Below are positions 976-19,810 of a stretch of DNA of 27,110 bases, piece after piece. The stretch lies in IMG/VR virus record IMGVR_UViG_2534681878_000029; one strand, given 5' to 3'. The translations under genes and the position numbers were made by a program. Below the pieces are notes generated by a model. The model was given only the letters and a program-made list of their open reading frames with translations, ran no database searches and was not told the DNA's origin. This stretch comes from a virus. Taxonomy: Duplodnaviria > Heunggongvirae > Uroviricota > Caudoviricetes. The first letter of the stretch is position 1; every line of letters starts with the position of its first letter.

Positions 976-1446
976 CCATCTGGATTCTCCTGTTAGTTAG
1001 CTTTGGTTGTGTGTGGGAGTCGTAGTCCTGAACGAAAACACCCCGCAATGGCACATTGGCTGCTAATCCGGATTCGCACTTCCGGCCAATGCTTCGTTTC
1101 GTATCACACACACCAAAGCCTTCTGCTTTGAATGCTGCCCTTCTTCAGGGCTTAATTTTTAAGAGCATCACCTTCATGGTGGTTAGTGCGTCCTGCTGAT
1201 GTGCTTAGTATCACCGCTAGTGGTATTTGTGTCAACACCGCCAGAGATAATTTATCACCGCAGATGGTTATCTGTATGTTTTTTATATAGATTTATTTTT
1301 TGCAGGGTTGTGTGGCTTGGGAGGTGATCGAGAGATCAGAATTGCGTTGTTTAGTGAGTTGCACCTATTAATTTTAAAATAAATACAATTGGTGAACCGC
1401 CCCGGGTTTCCTGGAGACTAAACTCCCTGAGAAAGAGGTAAACAGG

Positions 1447-1773
1447 ATGACTAAAAATACTCGTTTTTCCCCCGAAGTCCGTCAGCGGGCGATTCGTATG
1501 GTTCTGGAAAGTCAGGATGAATATGACTCACAGTGGGCGGCAATTTGTTCCATTGCCCCAAAGATTGGCTGTACGCCGGAGACTCTGCGTGTCTGGGTTC
1601 GCCAGCATGAGCGGGATACCGGGGGCGGTGATGGTGGGCTCACCAGCGCTGAACGTCAGCGTCTGAAAGAGCTGGAACGTGAAAATCGTGAACTGCGCCG
1701 CAGTAACGATATCCTTCGCCAGGCTTCCGCTTATTTTGCGAAGGCGGAGTTCGACCGCCTCTGGAAAAAATGA
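1447..1773 (+). CDS. IS3-family transposase OrfA (HTH/leucine-zipper part)
   Basis: 108 aa, [22 protein letters not shown]...; recognised from memory as IS629/IS1203-type OrfA. A second near-identical copy lies at 6565-6891 on the minus strand. Confidence 0.9.
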
Positions 1774-2660
1774 TGCCACTGCTGGATAAGCTGCGTGAGC
1801 AGTACGGGGTCGGACCGGTATGCAGCGAACTGCATATTGCCCCGTCAACGTATTACCATTGTCAGCAACAGCGACATCATCCGGATAAACGCAGTGCCCG
1901 TGCGCAGCACGACGACTGGCTGAAGAGAGAGATACAGCGCGTATACGATGAAAATCATCAGGTGTACGGTGTGCGTAAAGTCTGGCGTCAGTTGTTACGG
2001 GAAGGAATCAGGGTGGCCAGATGTACAGTGGCACGTCTCATGGCGGTTATGGGACTTGCCGGTGTTCTCCGGGGTAAAAAGGTCCGTACGACCATCAGCC
2101 GGAAAGCCGTTGCCGCAGGCGACCGCGTAAACCGTCAGTTCGTGGCAGAACGACCTGACCAGCTGTGGGTGGCTGATTTTACTTACGTCAGCACATGGCA
2201 GGGCTTCGTCTATGTGGCGTTTATCATTGATGTGTTTGCCGGATACATCGTGGGGTGGCGGGTCTCATCGTCTATGGAAACGACATTCGTGCTGGATGCG
2301 CTGGAGCAGGCGTTGTGGGCCCGTCGTCCGTCTGGCACCATCCATCACAGCGATAAAGGCTCTCAGTATGTGTCACTGGCCTATACGGAGCGACTAAAAG
2401 AAGCCGGATTACTGGCATCAACAGGGAGTACAGGCGACTCGTATGACAACGCGATGGCTGAGAGCATCAATGGTCTTTACAAAGCGGAGGTAATACACCG
2501 TAAGAGCTGGAAAAACCGTGCAGAAGTGGAACTGGCCACACTAACGTGGGTGGACTGGTATAACAATCGACGATTGCTGGGAAGGCTGGGCCATACTCCT
2601 CCGGCAGAAGCAGAAAAAGCTTATTATGCTTCCATCGGAAACGATGATCTGGCAGCCTGA
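1770..2660 (+). CDS. IS3-family transposase OrfB (DDE integrase-like catalytic domain)
   Basis: 296 aa, overlaps OrfA by 4 nt in the -1 frame; C-terminal portion matches the IS3/IS2 DDE transposase pattern; second copy at 5678-6568 on the minus strand. Confidence 0.9.
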
Positions 2661-2701
2661 GTTCACAGATAAAACACTCTCCAGGAAACCCGGGGCGGTT
2701 C

Positions 2702-3054
2702 AAGGCTGTTTTTCGAGTTTTTCTTAACTCTTCATGCAGCTCCGTTCTCAGAATATATGATTTTTCGAGTTTGAAATTCTTGCGACCAGGCGTCTTATTG
2801 CCAGGCTCAGGAAGTGGAAGGCGTGTTTGAATGTCGAGTGGTGGACAGTCATAGAAGTAAATTCTATAAAGCTCAAGCGGTTCCCTACGTTCTTGTGATT
2901 GACGTTTTCCATTAAGATGGGAAAGAACCATTGACCATATTACTTTCATTATGCATTGCGCAGTCAGTTCATGCTCGGCGAAGTGTTTACGATGCGTAGC
3001 ATGAACACGCTGCATGAAAAAACCCGCATCAATTAAAATTGCTGCTTTCTTCAT
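2702..3054 (-). pseudogene. cI-downstream gene of unknown function, 5' ~117 codons retained, 3' end replaced by IS629
   Basis: ORF starts 128 bp downstream of the cI stop (the position rexA occupies in lambda) with MKKAAILIDAGFF...; from residue ~118 the reading frame runs into the antisense of IS629, so the native 3' end is lost. Confidence 0.5.
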
Positions 3055-5635: not shown

Positions 5636-5677
5636 TGAACCGCCCCGGGTTTCCTGGAGAGTGTTTTATCTGTGAAC

Positions 5678-6568
5678 TCAGGCTGCCAGATCATCGTTTC
5701 CGATGGAAGCATAATAAGCTTTTTCTGCTTCTGCCGGAGGGATATGACCCAGCCTTCCCAGCAATCGTCGATTGTTATACCAGTCCACCCACGTGAGTGT
5801 GGCCAGTTCCACTTCTGCACGGTTTTTCCAGCTCTTACGGTGTATTACCTCCGCTTTGTAAAGACCATTGATGCTCTCCGCCATCGCGTTGTCATACGAG
5901 TCACCTGTACTCCCTGTTGATGCCAGCAGTTTTGCTTCTTTTAGTCGCTCCGTATAGGCCAGTGATACATACTGAGAACCTTTATCACTGTGATGGACTG
6001 TGCCGGACGGCCGACGGGCCCACAACGCCTGCTCCAGTGCATCCAGCACGAATGTCGTTTCCATAGACGATGAGACTCGCCACCCCACGATGTATCCGGC
6101 AAACACATCAATGATAAACGCCACATAGACGAAGCCCTGCCATGTGCTGACGTAAGTAAAATCAGCCACCCACAGCTGGTCAGGTCGTTCTGCCACGAAC
6201 TGACGGTTTACGCGGTCGCCTGCGGCAACGGCTTTCCGGCTGATGGTCGTACGGACCTTTTTACCCCGGAGAACACCGGCAAGTCCCATAACCGCCATGA
6301 GACGTGCCACTGTACATCTGGCCACCCTGATTCCTTCCCGTAACAACTGACGCCAGACTTTACGCACACCGTACACCTGATGATTTTCATCGTATACGCG
6401 CTGTATCTCTCTCTTCAGCCAGTCGTCGTGCTGCGCACGGGCACTGCGTTTATCCGGATGATGTCGCTGTTGCTGACAATGGTAATACGTTGACGGGGCA
6501 ATATGCAGTTCGCTGCATACCGGTCCGACCCCGTACTGCTCACGCAGCTTATCCAGCAGTGGCATCAT
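5678..6568 (-). CDS. IS3-family transposase OrfB (copy 2)
   Basis: 296 aa, ~99% identical to the 1770-2660 product (e.g. I192V, G212K, T278I differences). Confidence 0.9.
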
Positions 6569-6891
6569 TTTTTCCAGAGGCGGTCGAACTCCGCCTTCGC
6601 AAAATAAGCGGAAGCCTGGCGAAGGATATCGTTACTGCGGCGCAGTTCACGATTTTCACGTTCCAGCTCTTTCAGACGCTGACGTTCAGCGCTGGTGAGC
6701 CCACCATCACCGCCCCCGGTATCCCGCTCATGCTGGCGAACCCAGACACGCAGAGTCTCCGGCGTACAGCCAATCTTTGGGGCAATGGAACAAATTGCCG
6801 CCCACTGTGAGTCATATTCATCCTGACTTTCCAGAACCATACGAATCGCCCGCTGACGGACTTCGGGGGAAAAACGAGTATTTTTAGTCAT
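6565..6891 (-). CDS. IS3-family transposase OrfA (copy 2)
   Basis: C-terminal 108 aa of the 316-aa track ORF are identical to OrfA of copy 1; the ATG is at 6889-6891 (reverse strand). The upstream 208 aa of the track ORF are antisense read-through and not called. Confidence 0.9.
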
Positions 6892-6944
6892 CCTGTTTAC
6901 CTCTTTCTCAGGGAGTTTAGTCTCCAGGATTTCCGGGCGGTTCA

Positions 6945-7977
6945 AGGACATGACGATATCGGTCTGGGTCTTTCCTGATACTGATATTTCAGATGTATCG
7001 CGTGAGTTAATTGCGGCAATTAAACAGGGGTATCTAACAGTAAAAGCCGCCGGGGTATGGGCGGGGGGCATTGAAACACCTTCGGTGGAAACTCCATCGG
7101 AAGGCTCTAAATTTTTTGGTTTTGATATGGATAACGAATTCATCAGTGGTTTTGATGTAGGGGCATGGGGAGTATTACTCTGATGGCGAAAAATGACTTT
7201 AAAGCGTTTGCAACTGATCGAAATGCCAATGTTATGTCGCAGGAGGAATGGGAAGCGTTGCCTGCGCTTATATCCGGATTTACAGCAGGGAAAGCATCCA
7301 GTGCGCAAGTCAATAAGGTTATTCGGCAGGCCAGCTTTATTGCTGCAGCTCTGGCCCAGTTTGTAAGTGATAAAACGCAACGGGATGTGCTTGATAATGG
7401 TGATCTGCCCGGTTTTGTTGAATTGCTGGGATCGGGGTTTGCTGTTGAATACCTGAGCCGCAAGAATCCGTTTGGCGATATCAAATCGGACGGCACGGTG
7501 AAAACGGCTCTTCAAAACCTTGGTTTGGGAGAAGGTGCTCCAGCTATTGGCGTTCCGTTCTTCTGGCCGTCCGCTGCAATGCCAAATACTGTAATCGACA
7601 GCTGGTCCTGTATGGTGTTTTTGAAGTTCAACGGCGCGAAATTCTCTGCCACTGATTATCCTGTGCTGGCGAAAGTGTTTCCTTCGCTGGTATTACCTGA
7701 AGCCCGCGGTGATTTCATTCGTATCTGGGATGACGGGCGAGGTGCAGACGGTGGTCGCGAATTATTAAGCTGGCAGGCAGCTACAAACTTTTCTCAGTTT
7801 GCCGGGAATATAGGCGAAGGTGCGGGACACGCAATTAACTTTCATGATGGCATCGCCGGAAATCAGCCAGGATTTTCACGATTTAATTTCACCAGTAACT
7901 CTGTGGGTGATGGTGTGAATTTTGTTGCAGTCAGACCGCGAAATATTGCATTTAACTTTCTGGTGAGGGCTAAATAA
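6945..7977 (+). pseudogene. stf: Side tail fibre gene 3' remnant (C-terminal receptor-binding segment), 5' end removed at the IS629 junction
   Basis: ORF 7165-7977 (270 aa) is immediately followed by a tail-fibre assembly gene. The preceding 220 bp are open in another frame (6950-7183). No N-terminal tail-fibre shaft is present because the IS629 end is at 6944. Confidence 0.65.
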
Positions 7978-12439: not shown

Positions 12440-12805
12440 TTAAGTTAACGTTACCCGCTGACGTCGATATTCTCGCGGAGAGCGATAACCCAACGCACTG
12501 TGCGGATGGTTTTCATTGTAATGTTCGATCGCCACTGCAAGATTATGCAATGCCGTTCTTACATTCGGTTTCGGCATGAACGCGATGTAGTCTTCCTTCA
12601 TCGTTTTCACGAACCTTTCTGCAATTCCATTACTCTGAGGACTGCTGATTGCCGTTGTGCAGGGCTCCAGATTCAACTCTCTGGCGAACTGCCGTGTTTC
12701 ATGCGCTCTATACGCTGAACCGTTATCTGTCAGCCACTGGATGGACTGTTCCGGTACTTTATCGCCAAAGCGTTTTTCTATCGCTCCTAACATGACATCC
12801 TGCAC
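12440..12805 (-). pseudogene. IS3-family (IS2-group) transposase OrfB C-terminal fragment
   Basis: 121 aa ...[51 protein letters not shown]...[14 protein letters not shown] resembles the IS2 InsD C-terminus; no intact upstream catalytic domain or OrfA. Confidence 0.8.
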
Positions 12806-13152
12806 TGTCGCTTTATCGTAACCTCCCGTGCTTGCGGCCCAGTCTATGGCTTCACGATCGCAACAGTCCAGGGCGATTCATCTGGGCCAATCCTTGCTCA
12901 TAACAGGCATTCACTTCAGTCATGGCAGAAAGGTATGCATGCTGGAGAAGTCGTGAAAGAAAAGAAGACTGCTGCGCCGTTTGTCGTCACGTTTATCTTC
13001 ATTGGCTATGCAAGTCGTAATACAAGGTGGGACAAAACTGAGACACATAAGGCCTCGCAATGGCTTGCAAGGCTTTACATGTTTTGATGTGGTGGGACGT
13101 GTGAGCGCAGTGTTGATGGGGTAATGCTTTGAATTAGAAGCGGATTCTTATA

Positions 13153-13198
13153 ATTCGTAATGCGAAGGTCGTAGGTTCGACTCCTATTATCGGCACCA
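13153..13198 (+). tRNA. Partial tRNA-Thr (anticodon CGU, thrW-like), 3' ~46 nt only: attL core of the P4-like element
   Basis: ATTCGTAATGCGAAGGTCGTAGGTTCGACTCCTATTATCGGCACCA equals the 3' part of tRNA-Thr(CGU) from the anticodon loop; the upstream sequence is unrelated to the tRNA 5' half. Confidence 0.8.
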
Positions 13199-13360: not shown

Positions 13361-14542
13361 ATGCCTTTAAACGATATGCAGATTCGCCGCGCTAAGCCTG
13401 AAGCTAAAGCCTATACATTTGGAGATGGGCTAGGGTTGTCATTACTTATAGAACCTAATGGAAGCAAGAGTTGGCGGTTCCGCTATCGCTATGCCGGCAA
13501 ACCCAAAATGATCTCGCTTGGTGTTTACCCAACGATCACCCTTGCCGATGCTCGTTCCCGTCGTGATGAAGCTCGAAAACTTGTGGCAGAAGGAAAGAAC
13601 CCTAGTGAGGTTCGAAAAGAGCAAAAGCTAGCTATGCAAACAGAGTCAGAGAACGCCTTCGAAAAGATAGCCAGAGAGTGGCATCAACTTAAATCTGCTA
13701 AATGGTCGGCGGGATATGCATCAGACATCATGGAAGCGTTTAAGAACGACATTTTTCCTTATGTCGGAACAAGGCCTGTGGGAGAGATTAAACCGCTAGA
13801 GCTGCTGAACGTTCTGCGTAAAATTGAGAAACGTGGTGCGTTGGAGAAAATGCGCAAAGTGCGGCAGCGTTGCTCCGAAGTGTTTCGCTACGCAATTGCA
13901 ACGGGTAGGGCGGAGTACAATCCTGCGGCTGATCTCTCCAGCGCTCTCGAAGTACACCAATCCAATCATTTCCCATTCCTAAAAGCTGATGAGATACCTG
14001 ATTTTCTACGTGCCTTAGAGGGTTACTCCGGGAGTAAGCTTGTCCAGATAGCCACGAAATTACTGATGATTACGGGTGTGAGAACCATCGAATTACGCGC
14101 GGCATTATGGCAAGAATTTGATCTGGATAACGCTATTTGGGAAATTCCTGCTGAAAGGATGAAAATGCGTAGGCCACATCTTGTGCCCTTATCATCTCAA
14201 GCGGTAGATTTACTCAATGAACTCAAGATCATGACAGGGAACTATCGTTATGTTTTTCCAGGGCGGAACGATCCGAATAGGCCAATGAGCGAAGCGAGTA
14301 TAAATCAAGCCATTAAGCGTATTGGGTATGGAGGAAAAGTCACTGGACATGGTTTTCGTCATACCCTTTCTACAATCCTGCATGAGCAAGGTTTTGAGAG
14401 TGCTTGGATTGAAATCCAGTTGGCTCATGTAGATAAAAATTCTATTAGGGGGACTTATAACCATGCTCAATATTTTAGTGGAAGGAAGTCTATGATGGAC
14501 TGGTACAGTAATTTGATATTTGAAAGACTAAAAAGGAGTTAA
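13361..14542 (+). CDS. int: P4-type tyrosine integrase (IntA/IntS-like, DUF4102 N-domain)
   Basis: MPLNDMQIRRAKPEAKAYTFGDGLGLSLLIEPNGSKSWRFRYRYAGKPK... with the C-terminal R...HGFRHT...Y catalytic signature; directly downstream of the tRNA-Thr fragment. Start moved to the ATG at 13361 because the track extension overlaps an inverted repeat. Confidence 0.9.
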   Translation: MPLNDMQIRRAKPEAKAYTFGDGLGLSLLIEPNGSKSWRFRYRYAGKPKMISLGVYPTITLADARSRRDEARKLVAEGKNPSEVRKEQKLAMQTESENAFEKIAREWHQLKSAKWSAGYASDIMEAFKNDIFPYVGTRPVGEIKPLELLNVLRKIEKRGALEKMRKVRQRCSEVFRYAIATGRAEYNPAADLSSALEVHQSNHFPFLKADEIPDFLRALEGYSGSKLVQIATKLLMITGVRTIELRAALWQEFDLDNAIWEIPAERMKMRRPHLVPLSSQAVDLLNELKIMTGNYRYVFPGRNDPNRPMSEASINQAIKRIGYGGKVTGHGFRHTLSTILHEQGFESAWIEIQLAHVDKNSIRGTYNHAQYFSGRKSMMDWYSNLIFERLKRS

Positions 14543-14545
14543 TTT

Positions 14546-14962
14546 GTGTCTCAACCACTTTCGGAAATATTGACATGGGATGATGAACAATGGGAGGTAT
14601 TTGTCCATGATTGGCTTATTGTCTGTAAATCAGATGATTACCCGTGGAGCGAACGTTTGGGAGGAGCTGGAGATAAAGGTAGAGACGTTGTTGGATATAA
14701 ATCGGATCCTAACGTAGAAGGTTATTCTTGGGATAATTATCAATGCAAACTGTACAAAAAAAGTTTAGGGTTCTCTGATGTTGTAGTTGAGTTTGGAAAA
14801 CTTATCTATTTTACTCTGAATGGTGATTATCCCATCCCTCAGAAGTACTTTTTTGTGGCACCCTATGATTTATCTACTACATTTTCTAATTTATTGAAAA
14901 ATAAAAACGAGCTTAAAAAAGCAGTCCTTGATTCATGGGATTCAGCAATTTCAAAAAAATAA
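14546..14962 (+). CDS. Mrr-like PD-(D/E)xK nuclease-domain protein (candidate effector, N-terminal part)
   Basis: GTG start 4 nt after the int stop with SD AAGGAG at 14533-14538. Motif GGAGDKGRDVVGY ... YQCKLYKK (residues 39-72) matches the Mrr_cat pattern g-DgG-D ... QcK. AT-rich. Confidence 0.6.
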   Translation: MSQPLSEILTWDDEQWEVFVHDWLIVCKSDDYPWSERLGGAGDKGRDVVGYKSDPNVEGYSWDNYQCKLYKKSLGFSDVVVEFGKLIYFTLNGDYPIPQKYFFVAPYDLSTTFSNLLKNKNELKKAVLDSWDSAISKK

Positions 14963-15552
14963 CTAAAAAGATTGATATTCCATTAGATGATGAAATAAAA
15001 AAATATATTGAGGATTTTGATTTTAGTATTTTTTACTCTCTACCCTTATCATTGATTTTAAATGATATTGCAAATACACACCTTTATTTTAAGTACTTTA
15101 ACGAGCTGTATGTCGTGAGAATCCCTCCAAATGAAATTCCAACATACAATTCAAAAAAAGAGTCTGTATATGTTAATGCACTGCTTCAAGCCTATTCAGA
15201 GCATGGAAATAAAACTTATAGTTCTTTCTTAGAGCTTGATGATCCATACAGACGACACTTTAATAATAGTAGAAATGATTTTTATTTTGCATCTTCGCTT
15301 GAGGTTTTTGTCCGCGAAGTATTTAAAGATGATGTATTCAAAGCATTGAAATGTTACATTTCATCTTCAATTGAACCCGTCTTTTATGAAGACCATAATT
15401 ATGCATTTATTAGGTGTAATGCAGTCTTGAAGCAGGCTGTTCTGACACCAATTGCACATTCAGTACTATCAAAAATATGTGAAGCAAATGATAAAAAAGG
15501 AATATGCCATCATTTGGTTAATGATGGTGAAGTAATTTGGACGGTGAGATAA
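14935..15552 (+). CDS. Hypothetical protein; possibly the C-terminal continuation of the preceding ORF via -1 frameshift at an A7 run
   Basis: 205 aa ORF overlapping the previous one by 28 nt in the -1 frame; the overlap contains AAAAAAA (14953-14959) followed by the 0-frame stop; no recognisable motif. Confidence 0.5.
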   Translation: MGFSNFKKITKKIDIPLDDEIKKYIEDFDFSIFYSLPLSLILNDIANTHLYFKYFNELYVVRIPPNEIPTYNSKKESVYVNALLQAYSEHGNKTYSSFLELDDPYRRHFNNSRNDFYFASSLEVFVREVFKDDVFKALKCYISSSIEPVFYEDHNYAFIRCNAVLKQAVLTPIAHSVLSKICEANDKKGICHHLVNDGEVIWTVR

Positions 15553-16010
15553 TGGTTAGAATTTATAATTCAAGTTTAGAAGTGGCATGTCGAATGGCGA
15601 AAGTGCTCGTCGCTATTTATCCTTCTTCATTAAGCCTTGAACGGCTTATTTGTTTTGATTTTATTTTAGTAAATCTTAAGGATTTTTTACCTGAAGAGAT
15701 TAGTCTTCATCCTCCAATACCCCGTAGAGATGCTCAGTTAGCCCTAAAACGAGAGATTGTTTTAGAATCATTGGCTTTGTTGCAAGGCTATGAACTAGCC
15801 TCAAAAATTTATACACATCGTGGTTTTGTATATAAAGCTTCTGAAAAAACATATGCATTTACAAATTCTCTACATAATGAATATGTTGCGCAGATGGAGC
15901 ATAATATAAATTTGGTGGTTAAGTTATATAGTGATATTCCTGATGAGCAGTTGCAATCAATTATAAAAAATAAAATTGGCAAATATGATATGGAATTTAA
16001 TTATGAATGA
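15552..16010 (+). CDS. Hypothetical small protein (middle component)
   Basis: 152 aa from the ATG at 15552, overlapping the upstream stop as TAATG (translational coupling); no recognisable motif. Confidence 0.5.
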   Translation: MVRIYNSSLEVACRMAKVLVAIYPSSLSLERLICFDFILVNLKDFLPEEISLHPPIPRRDAQLALKREIVLESLALLQGYELASKIYTHRGFVYKASEKTYAFTNSLHNEYVAQMEHNINLVVKLYSDIPDEQLQSIIKNKIGKYDMEFNYE

Positions 16011-16635
16011 CAATTTTTTTACGTTCAGAAAAATAAAGGTAACCGGATTCAATAAATTAGATGCTATAATTGAATTTGGTTCTAAATTGACTATTTTATA
16101 TGGTGGTTCTGACTCTGGAAAAACATACATATATTATTTGATTCGATATTTATTAGGGAGTGAAAAACTAAAAAATAAAGATATCGATCATGCTCAAGGT
16201 TATGATTTAGCCTATCTGGAATTTAATTTTCAAGGTAGGGTAATGACAATTGAGAGGTCTCTTCAGGATAGCGCCCATTACAGATTATATGATTCGAGCA
16301 TTGAAAATGTTAGTGAAGCTAATCTGTTGATGGTTTTTTCCAAAAGTGCTTCGTCTAAAAAGAGTTTTTCATCATACTTTTATGGTAGGTTGAATTTCAA
16401 AGAGGCTAAAGTAAGAACAAACTTAAGTAATACTCTTCATAAATTTAATCTTAATAATGTTTTTGAATTTTTTTGTATTGATGAATTAAGAGTGTTAACT
16501 GAGAAGTCGTTAATTCTTTCTGATATTCCTAGCGAGGAGACAAAAAGAAAGTCTGAATTTAAATTCCTTTTAACTCAGAGAGATGATACTAACTCCTTAG
16601 CAGAAAAACCAAATAAAAAAGCAAGATATTTTTAA
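15985..16635 (+). CDS. ABC/SMC-like ATPase, N-terminal head with Walker A
   Basis: FRKIKVTGFNKLDAIIEFGSKLTILYGGSDSGKT: the SMC/RecF/RecN-type N-terminal strand followed by P-loop GGSDSGKT (nt 16102-16125). Start uncertain (ATG 15985 or 16003). Confidence 0.6.
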   Translation: MIWNLIMNDNFFTFRKIKVTGFNKLDAIIEFGSKLTILYGGSDSGKTYIYYLIRYLLGSEKLKNKDIDHAQGYDLAYLEFNFQGRVMTIERSLQDSAHYRLYDSSIENVSEANLLMVFSKSASSKKSFSSYFYGRLNFKEAKVRTNLSNTLHKFNLNNVFEFFCIDELRVLTEKSLILSDIPSEETKRKSEFKFLLTQRDDTNSLAEKPNKKARYF

Positions 16636-16665
16636 AAAAATCAAATTGCAAATATTTATGAGGAA

Positions 16666-17256
16666 TTGAAAGCGCAATTAATTTATCCTGAATATGATCA
16701 AGTCATTGTTTCAAGAGAACTTGAGAAAGTAGAGCAAGATATTGAATCATCGAAAGATATATTGAAAGGTATTGTTGATGCACTTGATGATAAGAAGCAA
16801 TTATTAAAAGAGTTAAGTGATGAATTATATTCAATCAGTGACAGGGAAAAATACTTATCATTACTCATTGAAAGATTTAGTCTTCTTAAAGACCAATACT
16901 TTATAGATCTACAAAGAATAGATGTTGTATCACAGGCGAATTTCTATTTAAATAATTTTGCAGATATTTATTGTGAGTTCTGTAATACACCGCAAAAAAA
17001 AGAAAATGAAATATCATATGATGATTGTTTTTTGTCGTGTAATGCAGAAAAATTGAAAATCAAAAGCCAGCTGAAAGGATTAATTGAATCAATCGGATCT
17101 AATGTTCGCGAACATGAATTAATTATGTTAAGAAAAAATGATGTTAATGAAATTTATCAATCAGAAAAAAGTGATTTTAAGACGTTAGAAGATAAAAATA
17201 TAAAACAATACATTCATCTCTTGAATCACTTTATGAATATAAAGACAATCTTTTAA
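16666..17256 (+). CDS. Coiled-coil segment, same frame as the preceding ORF and separated from it only by a single TAA
   Basis: 196 aa rich in heptad-like K/E/L/I repeats; the track start is TTG with no convincing SD; in frame with 15985-16635 across the TAA at 16633-16635. Confidence 0.5.
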   Translation: MKAQLIYPEYDQVIVSRELEKVEQDIESSKDILKGIVDALDDKKQLLKELSDELYSISDREKYLSLLIERFSLLKDQYFIDLQRIDVVSQANFYLNNFADIYCEFCNTPQKKENEISYDDCFLSCNAEKLKIKSQLKGLIESIGSNVREHELIMLRKNDVNEIYQSEKSDFKTLEDKNIKQYIHLLNHFMNIKTIF

Positions 17257-17822
17257 TGGATCACACAAAACATAGCATTCTATCTTCATTACAAGATAAA
17301 GAAGATGATGTTGACGAACTTAAATACTCCGCCGAGGACTTTGACTCCTTAACAGTAGCTGATTTGTATGATATAGAAATAGCGATGCAAGACTTTTTGA
17401 ATGATATAAATTTTGAAAATTCTAAAGATAACAAAGTGCGATTTGACGAAGATACATATGACTTTAATATCAATGGGAAACGCCGAGGAATGTTTGGTAA
17501 AGGTACCCGTGCAGTAATGCATGCTATATTTACCATTTGCTTTGCGGAATTTTTATCAAGAAAAGGGAATCCATTCATTGGATTTGTTGTGCTTGATAGT
17601 CCATTAGTGACGCACTTTGATAAAGATAGAGGGGGTTCTCTATCGGATGTTAATAGCGTCAGTCTCAGTGATTCATTTTATCACGCATTAATCAAAAGGG
17701 ACTATAATTTCCAGATTGTAATTCTTGAGAATAAAGGTCCGACGTTCCAAATAAAAATTAATGATGCAAATAAAATCCATAACTTAAATAAGAATGGAAG
17801 CTCTGGTTTTTATCCTGTTTAA
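17256..17822 (+). CDS. ABC/SMC-like ATPase, C-terminal head with signature-like and Walker B motifs
   Basis: ...RRGMFGKGTRAVMHAIFTICFAEF (signature-like region) followed ~20 aa later by IGFVVLDSP (Walker B-like hhhhD); ATG overlaps the upstream stop as TAATG. Confidence 0.55.
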   Translation: MDHTKHSILSSLQDKEDDVDELKYSAEDFDSLTVADLYDIEIAMQDFLNDINFENSKDNKVRFDEDTYDFNINGKRRGMFGKGTRAVMHAIFTICFAEFLSRKGNPFIGFVVLDSPLVTHFDKDRGGSLSDVNSVSLSDSFYHALIKRDYNFQIVILENKGPTFQIKINDANKIHNLNKNGSSGFYPV

Positions 17823-18231: not shown

Positions 18232-18504
18232 TCAGACAGGAATTTGCTGACGGCTTGACAGCTTTGACGCGGAGCCATAGCGATTGAGAGTTTGCTGTTG
18301 TTTTTCCGGCATTTGTGCTTTCTCTGATTCCTGTTCATTGCGCCGGGGCTTCATGATTATCGTATCCACACTTTCCAGTGCGGTAAATGTGTAGGAACAT
18401 TCAAGATTCTGGCACTGATACCATGAGCGTTTAACCGATGGTGCTTCATAGGCGGAGGTTCTGGCGTGTGCCGTCGTACCGCATTCGGGACATTTAAGTG
18501 CCAT
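18232..18504 (-). CDS. Ogr/Delta-family zinc-finger late-gene transcriptional activator
   Basis: MALKCPECGTTAHARTSAYEAPSVKRSWYQCQNLECSYTFTALESV: the CxxC...AHARTS...QCxNxxC...TF pattern of P2 Ogr / P4 Delta. Confidence 0.85.
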   Translation of the reverse strand: MALKCPECGTTAHARTSAYEAPSVKRSWYQCQNLECSYTFTALESVDTIIMKPRRNEQESEKAQMPEKQQQTLNRYGSASKLSSRQQIPV

Positions 18505-18509
18505 TAATA

Positions 18510-19061
18510 TTACTCCTGCATGCCGTTAATGTAATCCAGACGTTGCTGAAAGCGCAGTTGTTGTGCAGGGGTGTAAGAGCTCTGGCAATCACGAACCATC
18601 ATGGGGTCAGGCATCACACCGGATTCATCCAGAATCATACGATAATCCCCGGCAATTTCAGGCGGTGTTATTGCCAGCTGGCGAACCAGAGCATTGCGTA
18701 ATATACGGGACGCAACGTCAACCCCTCCGCGCCCCTTCAGGAACGGAGCCAGTGCAGATGTCAGGGCTGCTCCATTCGCCTGCATAAAATTGCTGAGAGC
18801 GTCTTCTGTGCAGGCCTCCATCAGTTGATGCTGCGAGTAAATGCATTCGCGCGCAGCACAGTTAATTTGCCATTTCAGCACATCCAGATGTTCCCGCTGT
18901 AATTCGAGCTGTCGAGCATAATCTGCTGGTTTTTCCATGGCAGTGAGGAGTGATTCTATCTGTTGTTCAACGGCTTTTCGGCTCTCACTATGTCCAGCCC
19001 ACAGAATACGGGCATTTCTAAAACTGATAAGCGCTTGGTCTGGAGTGACTCGGGCCATCAT
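18510..19061 (-). CDS. psu: Psu-like protein (P4 polarity suppression / capsid decoration family)
   Basis: 183 aa; shares recalled P4 Psu motifs (KWQ[IV]N, HG[AT]ALA[AS]ALAP, TPAQ); co-oriented with the sid-like gene as in P4. Confidence 0.7.
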   Translation of the reverse strand: MMARVTPDQALISFRNARILWAGHSESRKAVEQQIESLLTAMEKPADYARQLELQREHLDVLKWQINCAARECIYSQHQLMEACTEDALSNFMQANGAALTSALAPFLKGRGGVDVASRILRNALVRQLAITPPEIAGDYRMILDESGVMPDPMMVRDCQSSYTPAQQLRFQQRLDYINGMQE

Positions 19062-19810
19062 ACTGCTTTCTCCTTCTCAGCACGTTCCTGACGAACCTTC
19101 ATTTTATGCATAGCTGCTGGAGAGAGTTTATTACTGAAATCCAGACGGGCCGCATAATCCGGGGCAACTCCCGCCAGTTTAAACACGGGGTCCTGTTCGG
19201 GCATCGCATCGTTAGTCAGAGCCGGTCTGGTGATATGTTTATGAATAAAATCTTTCAGCAGTGTGTCCGGGTCATTAACTGAATGCACCACACCGACAAC
19301 TGCGCTGGCTTCCCTGCCCATTGTTGATTTGAGCAGGCTTAGTGTCTGGATTAGTGCTTTTCCATGCGACTGCATAAAATCTTCCCAGATTTGTTTTGCG
19401 CGAATACCCACAAGGGTGTCGTGCGCGTGGATATACTTTCCGGCTAATTCCGCAGCCTCCTGCGGCAAAAGTGCATTTTCGCTTTCCTGAGCCGCCAGCA
19501 GCTCATCAAAATCCTCAAGCGTTTCTCGTCCCAGCGCAATTTCCGTGCGCAGTTTTTTCATTTCCTTTGAGACTACGCCCTGACTTTCACGAAATAGCGT
19601 GCGCCACTCCTCATTCAGGGCGTTCGTCGTGGCTTCCATTTCAGCGCGGCGCTGGCGGATTGTCGCAATATTATCCGCTGCCGCTTTTTGCTGACGACGT
19701 GCTTCAAGCCATGCAGATTTGGTGGCATTCACTTTCTCAAGCGCCTGTTGCGTCGAAACAGGGATAGAAATTTCAACGATCGGGTTATTGTTCTGTTCTG
19801 GGATTGTCAT
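19058..19810 (-). CDS. sid: Sid-like external scaffold protein (P4 capsid size determination family)
   Basis: 250 aa, Ala/Glu/Gln-rich helical protein upstream of psu in the same operon, divergent from the alpA/primase operon; resembles what I recall of P4 Sid (e.g. EEWRTLFRESQGVVS). Confidence 0.7.
   Translation of the reverse strand: MTIPEQNNNPIVEISIPVSTQQALEKVNATKSAWLEARRQQKAAADNIATIRQRRAEMEATTNALNEEWRTLFRESQGVVSKEMKKLRTEIALGRETLEDFDELLAAQESENALLPQEAAELAGKYIHAHDTLVGIRAKQIWEDFMQSHGKALIQTLSLLKSTMGREASAVVGVVHSVNDPDTLLKDFIHKHITRPALTNDAMPEQDPVFKLAGVAPDYAARLDFSNKLSPAAMHKMKVRQERAEKEKAV

Follow-up and report, generated by a model that had tools for sequence, protein, structure and literature searches.

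The question at this locus is whether the ribosome is meant to cross from one reading frame into another, or whether a single gene has simply been broken. In the 27,110-nucleotide stretch of Caudoviricetes DNA analysed here (the window), the sequence at 14945-14962 reads GCA ATT TCA AAA AAA TAA, with a run of seven As (A7; 14953-14959) followed directly by the 0-frame stop codon (14960-14962). The first ORF starts at 14546 (2 mod 3) and the next at 14935 (1 mod 3), which places the second ORF in the -1 frame with an overlap of 28 nt; the A_AAA_AAA heptamer fits the 0-frame register X_XXY_YYZ, and the -1 ORF runs on to 15552. The preliminary description had reported the A7 run, the TCA AAA AAA TAA ending, the -1 ORF and the 28-nt overlap, all of which are borne out by the sequence and the ORF list, and had offered three readings: programmed -1 frameshifting, a phase-variable homopolymer, or a simple frameshift mutation splitting one effector of about 340 residues. 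We conclude, with a probability of roughly 0.92, that the A7 run was left behind by a one-base deletion that splits the lmuA gene of a decaying Lamassu system, and is thus an ordinary pseudogene lesion.

The region is 100% identical to genomes of E. coli O157:H7, including Sakai, EDL933 and about 300 others, and the Sakai annotation names the element prophage Sp2, a 'P4-like phage'. The window is the P4-like satellite prophage element Sp2/CP-933I of E. coli O157:H7. The cassette that contains the junction lies between the P4-type integrase and the ogr/delta-psu-sid genes (18232-19810), and this psu-int position is a hotspot of defence cargo in P4-like satellites (PMC9122126). A literature search on ECs0290-ECs0293 and CP-933I found nothing. 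We also considered whether the P4-hotspot system of O157:H7 FRIK944 (Rousset et al.) is the same cassette, but it differs, being according to the supplement a two-gene cytidine-deaminase cassette; it showed no activity (PMC9122126).

When one A is inserted to restore the frame, the resulting 335-aa protein matches the PADLOC LmuA profile PDLC03852 in a single stretch from residue 3 to residue 333 (297 bits, 8e-89), and the C-terminal half of the effector, encoded by the downstream ORF, matches Pfam CTD6 (PF20282, 7.7e-30). The lmuC product matches Pfam MC2 (PF20288, 6e-30) and PADLOC LmuC (2.9e-36). The three ORFs 3' of lmuC give, in order, AAA_23/SMC_N, no Pfam match, and DUF3732, and an intact homologue of the ATPase matches PADLOC LmuB (395 bits, 1.2e-118); none of the six operon ORFs matched an NCBIfam profile. 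We identify the cassette, in the order lmuA-lmuC-lmuB, as a Lamassu (ABC-3C) system of type II whose effector is a PD-(D/E)xK (Mrr-like) nuclease (Table 1); Lamassu type II (short) with an Mrr-type effector corresponds in Pfam nomenclature to ABC-3C with CTD6 and MC2. The label 'nuclease ORF' given to the first frame in the preliminary description proved apt, as the invariant D43/D47/Q66-x-K68 constitutes a PD-(D/E)xK-type motif and the structural model of a homologue matches the nuclease domains of LmuA, MspJI, Cap4 and FokI.

Table 1. Features of the satellite element, the Lamassu cassette and its lesions (positions in the window).
Feature	Position	Strand	Evidence or remark
P4-type tyrosine integrase of the satellite	13361-14542	+	left boundary of the defence hotspot
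lmuA pseudogene	14546-15552	+	N-terminal Mrr-like PD-(D/E)xK nuclease and CTD6 effector; split by a 1-nt deletion
lmuA upstream fragment (upstream ORF)	14546-14962	+	138 aa, GTG start; nuclease core with invariant D43, D47, Q66, K68, E82 and K85; ends with helix 120-138
lmuA downstream fragment (downstream ORF, -1 frame)	14935-15552	+	205 aa as called, ATG start; remaining N-terminal region and CTD6; without start signals of its own
lmuA frameshift lesion site, A7 run	14953-14959	+	codon alignment with homologues
lmuC (ABC-3C middle component 2)	15552-16010	+	intact in the window; lmuA stop and lmuC start overlap (TAATG)
lmuB pseudogene (SMC-like ABC ATPase), three pieces	16003-17822	+	tblastn, Pfam, Sakai annotation
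Premature TAA in lmuB	16633-16635	+	TTA (Leu) in O55:H7 copies; Leu in the Xenorhabdus homologue
1-nt deletion in lmuB	17207-17208	+	CAA ATA to CAATA; common to O55:H7
ogr/delta and psu (P4-like satellite)	18232-19061	-	annotation; right boundary of the hotspot

The cassette has an LmuA with its family-specific CTD, an LmuB in the same operon and an LmuC between the two, and it resembles other type II Lamassu systems in the order lmuA-lmuC-lmuB with overlapping stops and starts, in an LmuA built of an N-terminal PD-(D/E)xK nuclease and a CTD, in an LmuC of the MC2 type, and in an SMC-like ABC ATPase LmuB of about 605 aa. It does not, however, have all its components in intact frames: two of the three genes are pseudogenes, lmuA by a frameshift and lmuB by a nonsense codon and a frameshift. 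It also differs from the systems whose structures are known, V. cholerae DdmABC (9NXX/9NY5) and Salmonella LmuACB (9HQX), in that these carry Cap4 with CTD7 whereas the effector in the window is Mrr-like with CTD6. In RefSeq the two halves of lmuA are given as separate CDSs ('hypothetical protein' and 'ABC-three component system protein'), and the lmuB ATPase is split into three CDSs in most O157 genomes.

Evidence on the nature of the junction comes from lmuA homologues. With the restored 335-aa protein as query, a homologue search returned 157 significant matches, and among the 120 listed almost all are 324-381 aa long and are aligned at 91-100% coverage; more than 100 single-ORF homologues, of 330-380 aa, span 97-100% of restored LmuA. 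The exceptions among the matches listed are the E. coli fragment itself, one 298-aa protein (P0104) and one of 211 aa, the last stemming from an lmuA copy broken by an independent CAA to TAA nonsense codon. The best homologue is a 335-aa protein of Xenorhabdus bovienii (67% identity), and intact operons of the same three-gene layout in Xenorhabdus, Aeromonas dhakensis and metagenomes encode proteins of 334-337, 151-154 and 604-612 aa. The conserved sequence runs straight through the break: W131 on one side is invariant and I139 on the other is at least 90% conserved in the protein alignment, and SWDSAISKK|ITKK in the window stands against VWDESISKK|ITST and the like in homologues, within a family pattern of WDxSISKK|ITxx. 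Thus where the preliminary description had allowed that homologues might consistently encode two separate proteins, they turn out to be single ORFs, which makes the junction a lesion and not a recoding site. The suggestion of a simple frameshift mutation fares best, since the restored protein, at 335 aa, aligns end to end with intact homologues.

The DNA of these homologues also bears on what was lost. In Aeromonas the junction reads TCA AAA AAA ATT, an in-frame run of eight As (A8) and thus a different run length from that of the window, while AGT AAA AAA ATA occurs in two metagenomic homologues and AGT AAA ATA in Xenorhabdus. Elsewhere the Lys-Lys codons differ synonymously (AAA AAA, AAG AAA or AAA AAG), and AGT AAA also occurs. 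The A-run itself is not conserved, and at the codon level it is a by-product of Lys-Lys-Ile codons in AT-rich genes. Judged against the family, the lmuA of the window is one base short, and its ancestor would most simply have had A8 (TCA AAA AAA ATA), although an AAG codon that lost its G would leave the same A7. No close intact relative of the cassette (above 67% identity) was found, and the ancestral DNA is reconstructed from distant homologues; a scan of genome contigs gave a single distant homologue (32%).

A separate observation from the same subfamily concerns an SRA assembly (SRR25209460; L014:3001-3993), in which an lmuA homologue of 60% identity carries an in-frame CAA to TAA change at codon 212. 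The lmuC and the 609-aa lmuB of that locus are intact, making it a second, independent effector-only knockout in this Lamassu subfamily.

To place the break in the protein, we used an AlphaFold2 model of the closest intact homologue (P0001), which is 67% identical to restored LmuA and shares its length and numbering. The model has a mean pLDDT of 94.4 and puts the break at the C-terminal end of helix 120-138, where the local pLDDT is 96-98; further ordered elements follow it in the chain (H149-157, E163-166 and H168-185, then the helical CTD). In a Foldseek comparison, the best PDB matches are the LmuA chains 9NXX, 9NY1, 9HQX and 9UXH, followed by the nuclease-fold proteins MspJI, Cap4, FokI and EndoMS, with alignments of 113-195 columns. 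The solved LmuA chains show just 7-11% sequence identity in this fold comparison, and a sequence-profile search of the PDB gave no match, such that LmuA was found by fold comparison only. On this model, the lesion lies within ordered, conserved structure and not at a natural domain boundary or linker. The nuclease-fold alignments, 135-195 columns long and reported as column counts, suggest that the nuclease domain extends past residue 138.

These features count against the notion that the gene has undergone a functional fission, with the nuclease and CTD6 fragments acting as two subunits and the second translated from ATG 14935 by coupling or re-initiation. Two CDSs are indeed annotated, and the first fragment holds all the invariant catalytic residues, but the break lies in conserved, well-ordered structure, no homologue is organised as two ORFs, and LmuB, the partner of the putative pair, is broken. 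The initiation context also counts against it: AAGGAG precedes the GTG start of the first ORF, but no Shine-Dalgarno sequence was found upstream of ATG 14935 (sequence AAAAAAGCAGTCCTTGATTC), which lies 27 nt upstream of the stop of the first ORF. The -1 frame opens at 14932, just past a TGA at 14929-14931, and ATG 14935 is the first start codon thereafter; the length of the overlap is set by that TGA, and the 28 nt have no significance of their own. In Lamassu, moreover, it is the covalent link between the N- and C-terminal parts of LmuA that couples sequestration and tetramerisation to nuclease activation (PMC12663957; bioRxiv 10.1101/2025.03.14.643221), and we regard a working two-subunit effector as highly improbable.

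The junction has the look of a recoding site, and programmed -1 ribosomal frameshifting or transcriptional slippage at A_AAA_AAA-TAA, which would set the ratio of a nuclease-only protein to full-length LmuA, deserves to be weighed on its merits. The heptamer stands in the correct register, the 0-frame stop is directly 3' of it, and the -1 ORF continues the homologous protein. In dnaX and in IS3 elements, the family as a whole keeps both the two-frame layout and the slippery motif, with flanking stimulators. The lmuA junction is like these sites in having an A-rich slippery run beside a 0-frame stop and a continuation in the -1 frame, but unlike them in that its family has a single ORF, does not conserve the run and shows no stimulator at the window's junction. 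No 3' hairpin stimulator was found in the 81 nt downstream of the site, whose predicted folding energy is -5.9 kcal/mol (z = +1.3; 185 of 200 shuffled sequences fold at least as well), nor was any SD-like element (GGAG, AGGA or GAGG) found in the 23 nt 5' of the run. Of the hallmarks of programmed -1 frameshifting, the heptamer and the open -1 frame are thus present, and the stimulators and a conserved two-frame layout are not.

The motif itself is not distinctive in the AT-rich context of the operon. Across 14546-17822 the G+C content is 30.9% and the A content 35.5%, against 44.7% G+C for the whole window; there are six runs of at least seven As in this interval and four in-frame A_AAA_AAA heptamers (at 14953, 14997, 15153 and 16995), three of which sit inside unbroken coding sequence. 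In homologues the run is interrupted by a synonymous AAG or gives way to AGT, none of the other homologues examined has two ORFs in this layout, and the one broken copy, in L014, is broken elsewhere and by a nonsense codon. Together with the state of lmuB, which is a pseudogene broken at two sites that are not slippery, and with the extra lesions that sublineages have gathered, these observations make programmed frameshifting, as suggested in the preliminary description, very unlikely.

Some slippage may nevertheless occur. In reporter assays A_AA.A_AA.A, which is common in IS1 and IS3 elements, gives more than 0.1% frameshifting without stimulators, with motif-to-background ratios of 2-10 over a reporter background of about 0.055% (PMC4066793), and published reporter values for A_AAA_AAA are about 0.1-0.5%. 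In many bacterial genomes, signs of selection against transcriptional slippage emerge once a run reaches about 9 nt (PMC1088944). Ribosomal or transcriptional slippage on the A_AAA_AAA-stop sequence may therefore produce complete LmuA in trace amounts, which would be incidental; a stop codon directly 3' of a slippery site may itself stimulate slippage. Since LmuB is truncated, however, LmuA restored by frameshifting would lack a functional sensor, and slippage cannot restore the system.

The locus is also comparable to the 'pseudo-pseudogenes' of Baranov et al. (2005; PMC1088944), in which a poly-A indel splits an otherwise conserved gene. In those cases frameshift alleles in A or T runs are partly rescued by transcriptional slippage, with runs of at least 9 nt, although as few as 8 As are productive in some IS elements (PMC1088944). 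The lmuA run differs in being only 7 nt long, and whereas the rest of the pathway is intact in the pseudo-pseudogenes, here the partner ATPase is dead. Citrobacter rodentium tssM (PMC4256274) is a possible further example of the class.

If the A7 run were a contingency tract, switching a toxic abortive-infection effector between ON (A8) and OFF (A7) within populations, both lengths should be found among related isolates. Homopolymers are hot spots for indels, A7-A8 runs stand in frame at the same codons in intact homologues of two lineages, and an OFF switch could help because Lamassu effectors are toxic once released (bioRxiv 10.1101/2025.03.14.643221). We probed 5,426 complete genomes with a 73-nt sequence containing A7 and a 74-nt sequence containing A8. 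The A7 probe matched with at least 99% identity in 308 of 308 E. coli records (100% in every record listed), whereas the A8 probe fell in the 95-99% band in all 308, every listed record giving 98.6%, the value that one gap gives. Thus the run is exactly A7 in every one of these records, which span O157:H7 and O55:H7, and the A8 (ON) allele was found in none of the 5,426 genomes. The invariance of A7 is by itself of limited power because all E. coli copies are at least 99% identical, that is, clonal. But no length polymorphism was seen among related isolates, homologues differ in both the length and the composition of the run, and an ON allele would still be without a working LmuB, so that the phase-variable homopolymer proposed at the outset is scarcely credible. 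The same census disposes of the idea that the gene is really intact and the missing base an error of sequencing or assembly: homopolymer indels are common on some platforms, but the identical A7 in 308 independently sequenced complete genomes, Sakai and EDL933 among them, refutes it and leaves it a negligible probability.

The E. coli collection contains 310 matching places, of which one belongs to a plasmid-typed record; a single genome carries two copies. Genomes from beyond the O157:H7/O55:H7 clade share the integrase alone (82-93% identity) and differ in cargo, which fits cassette swapping at the P4 hotspot.

A further line of evidence is the state of lmuB. The interval 16003-17822 aligns with residues 8-604 of an intact 604-aa LmuB homologue, and tblastn with intact ATPases of 604-609 aa passes through an in-frame stop and then changes frame between 17203 and 17210; Sakai already annotates the gene (ECs_0293) as a pseudogene. 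The premature TAA sits in a T5-A7 stretch (16633-16640; TAT TTT TAA AAA AAT) and results from a TTA to TAA change at 16634 in O157. Because the O55:H7 copies have TTA at this position, the lmuB nonsense codon arose after the O55/O157 split and is younger than the lmuA frameshift. We also noted possible restarts in the lmuB fragments, at a TTG at 16666, 31 nt past the TAA, and at ATG 17256, which overlaps the stop of the middle fragment as TAATG (17254-17258). To judge from sequence these restart codons are probably fortuitous, yet pieces of LmuB could be translated.

Comparison of lineages adds further lesions. O55:H7 RM12579 (L012) and the similar FDAARGOS_946 (L011) share the lmuA A7 and the lmuB deletion at 17207 with O157, and both have an extra 1-nt lmuB deletion at 17165 (A6 to A5; 17165-17170); FDAARGOS_946 additionally has a TAT to TAA nonsense change in lmuC at window position 15812. 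O157:H7 NE 1092-2 carries a second lmuA frameshift through loss of an A at 14589, and in strains 4276 and F3113 the cassette is partly or almost wholly lost. Nine substitutions separate the O55-type copies from that of the window (O157-type); eight are non-synonymous, among them two that create nonsense codons. The pattern across the cassette reads as neutral decay after an ancient inactivation.

In our account, one base was lost from lmuA, most simply from A8 to A7 by replication slippage. The deletion ends the frame two codons further on, giving a 138-aa N-terminal nuclease fragment, and strands the remaining 197 codons, including CTD6, in the -1 frame, where they lack start signals. Both this lesion and the 1-nt lmuB deletion predate the divergence of the sampled O55:H7 and O157:H7 copies from their common ancestor, and independent inactivating mutations have kept building up since, leaving a decaying, presumably non-functional system. 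Published structures and mutants of Lamassu indicate what the split would mean for the protein: the C-terminal domain of LmuA makes all the contacts with LmuB2-LmuC and, once LmuA is released, brings about the tetramerisation by which the active nuclease site forms; the N-terminal nuclease on its own is non-toxic unless artificially dimerised; and LmuB ATPase mutants lose defence (PMC12663957; bioRxiv 10.1101/2025.03.14.643221). With the nuclease core parted from the CTD, both regulation and activation should be abolished, and from these precedents we infer that the lmuA fragments would be inert.

A doubtful variant of this account is that the lmuA frameshift was a selected loss of function and not a neutral accident. 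Lamassu is an abortive-infection system with reported anti-plasmid activity, and a nuclease knockout in the O55:H7/O157:H7 ancestor would have relieved its self-toxicity; the A8 tract at Lys-Lys-Ile would have offered the easiest safe path to inactivation, with the effector lost first and the ATPase thereafter. If true, the loss would have cleared the way for lambdoid prophages and the large virulence plasmid to build up later, and the cassette would be a fixed defence pseudogene in the P4 hotspot.

Several features of the rest of the window are worth recording. It contains two IS629-like (IS3-family) insertions of about 1.31 kb, at 1395-2706 (+) and 5636-6944 (-), which are about 98% identical to each other, in opposite orientation, and both absent from EDL933 at these places; because of these two extra insertions, the mapping of window coordinates to EDL933 holds from 6945 onward only. 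In the first copy, orfA (1447-1773) and orfB (1770-2660) have a 0/-1 arrangement with the junction TGG AAA AAA TGA TG, and since the two-frame layout is the norm in this family, the element provides a contrast to the lmuA lesion within the same window. Just upstream of the Sp2 integrase, 46 nt at 13153-13198 duplicate the 3' end of tRNA-Thr(CGU) (thrW), as expected for the att-site duplicate of a tandem Sp1 + Sp2 integration at thrW; ARAGORN found no complete tRNA gene in the window, and the tRNA-Thr annotated in EDL933 lies outside it. The neighbouring lambda-like Sp1 remnant (5953-7183 in EDL933 coordinates, shifted in the window by the IS insertions) is heavily decayed as well: its integrase is truncated, its replication gene is frameshifted or partial, and part of an IS3-family transposase remains (12440-12874). 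The thrW island as a whole is thus a graveyard for the genes of mobile elements.

Returning to the one-base deletion in lmuA, a textbook slippery heptamer followed by a stop in an AT-rich gene is no evidence of recoding without comparative support. Direct tests speak against each of the four rivals: programmed recoding, phase variation, sequencing error and a functional fission of the gene. The RefSeq pieces of lmuA and lmuB should be read as one decayed Lamassu cassette, and inventories of defence systems in O157:H7 should not count it as functional. A 2026 survey found defence pseudogenes to be rare in P4 hotspots, with fewer than 1% of P4 pseudogenes resembling defence genes (PMC13586616), and the sole mildly notable aspect of the present case is that throughout the O55:H7/O157:H7 clade a P4 hotspot carries a fixed defence pseudogene. 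What the cassette offers is a clear, datable example of the stepwise decay of a defence system in a P4-satellite hotspot, with two lesions common to O55:H7 and O157:H7 and later ones that are lineage-specific.
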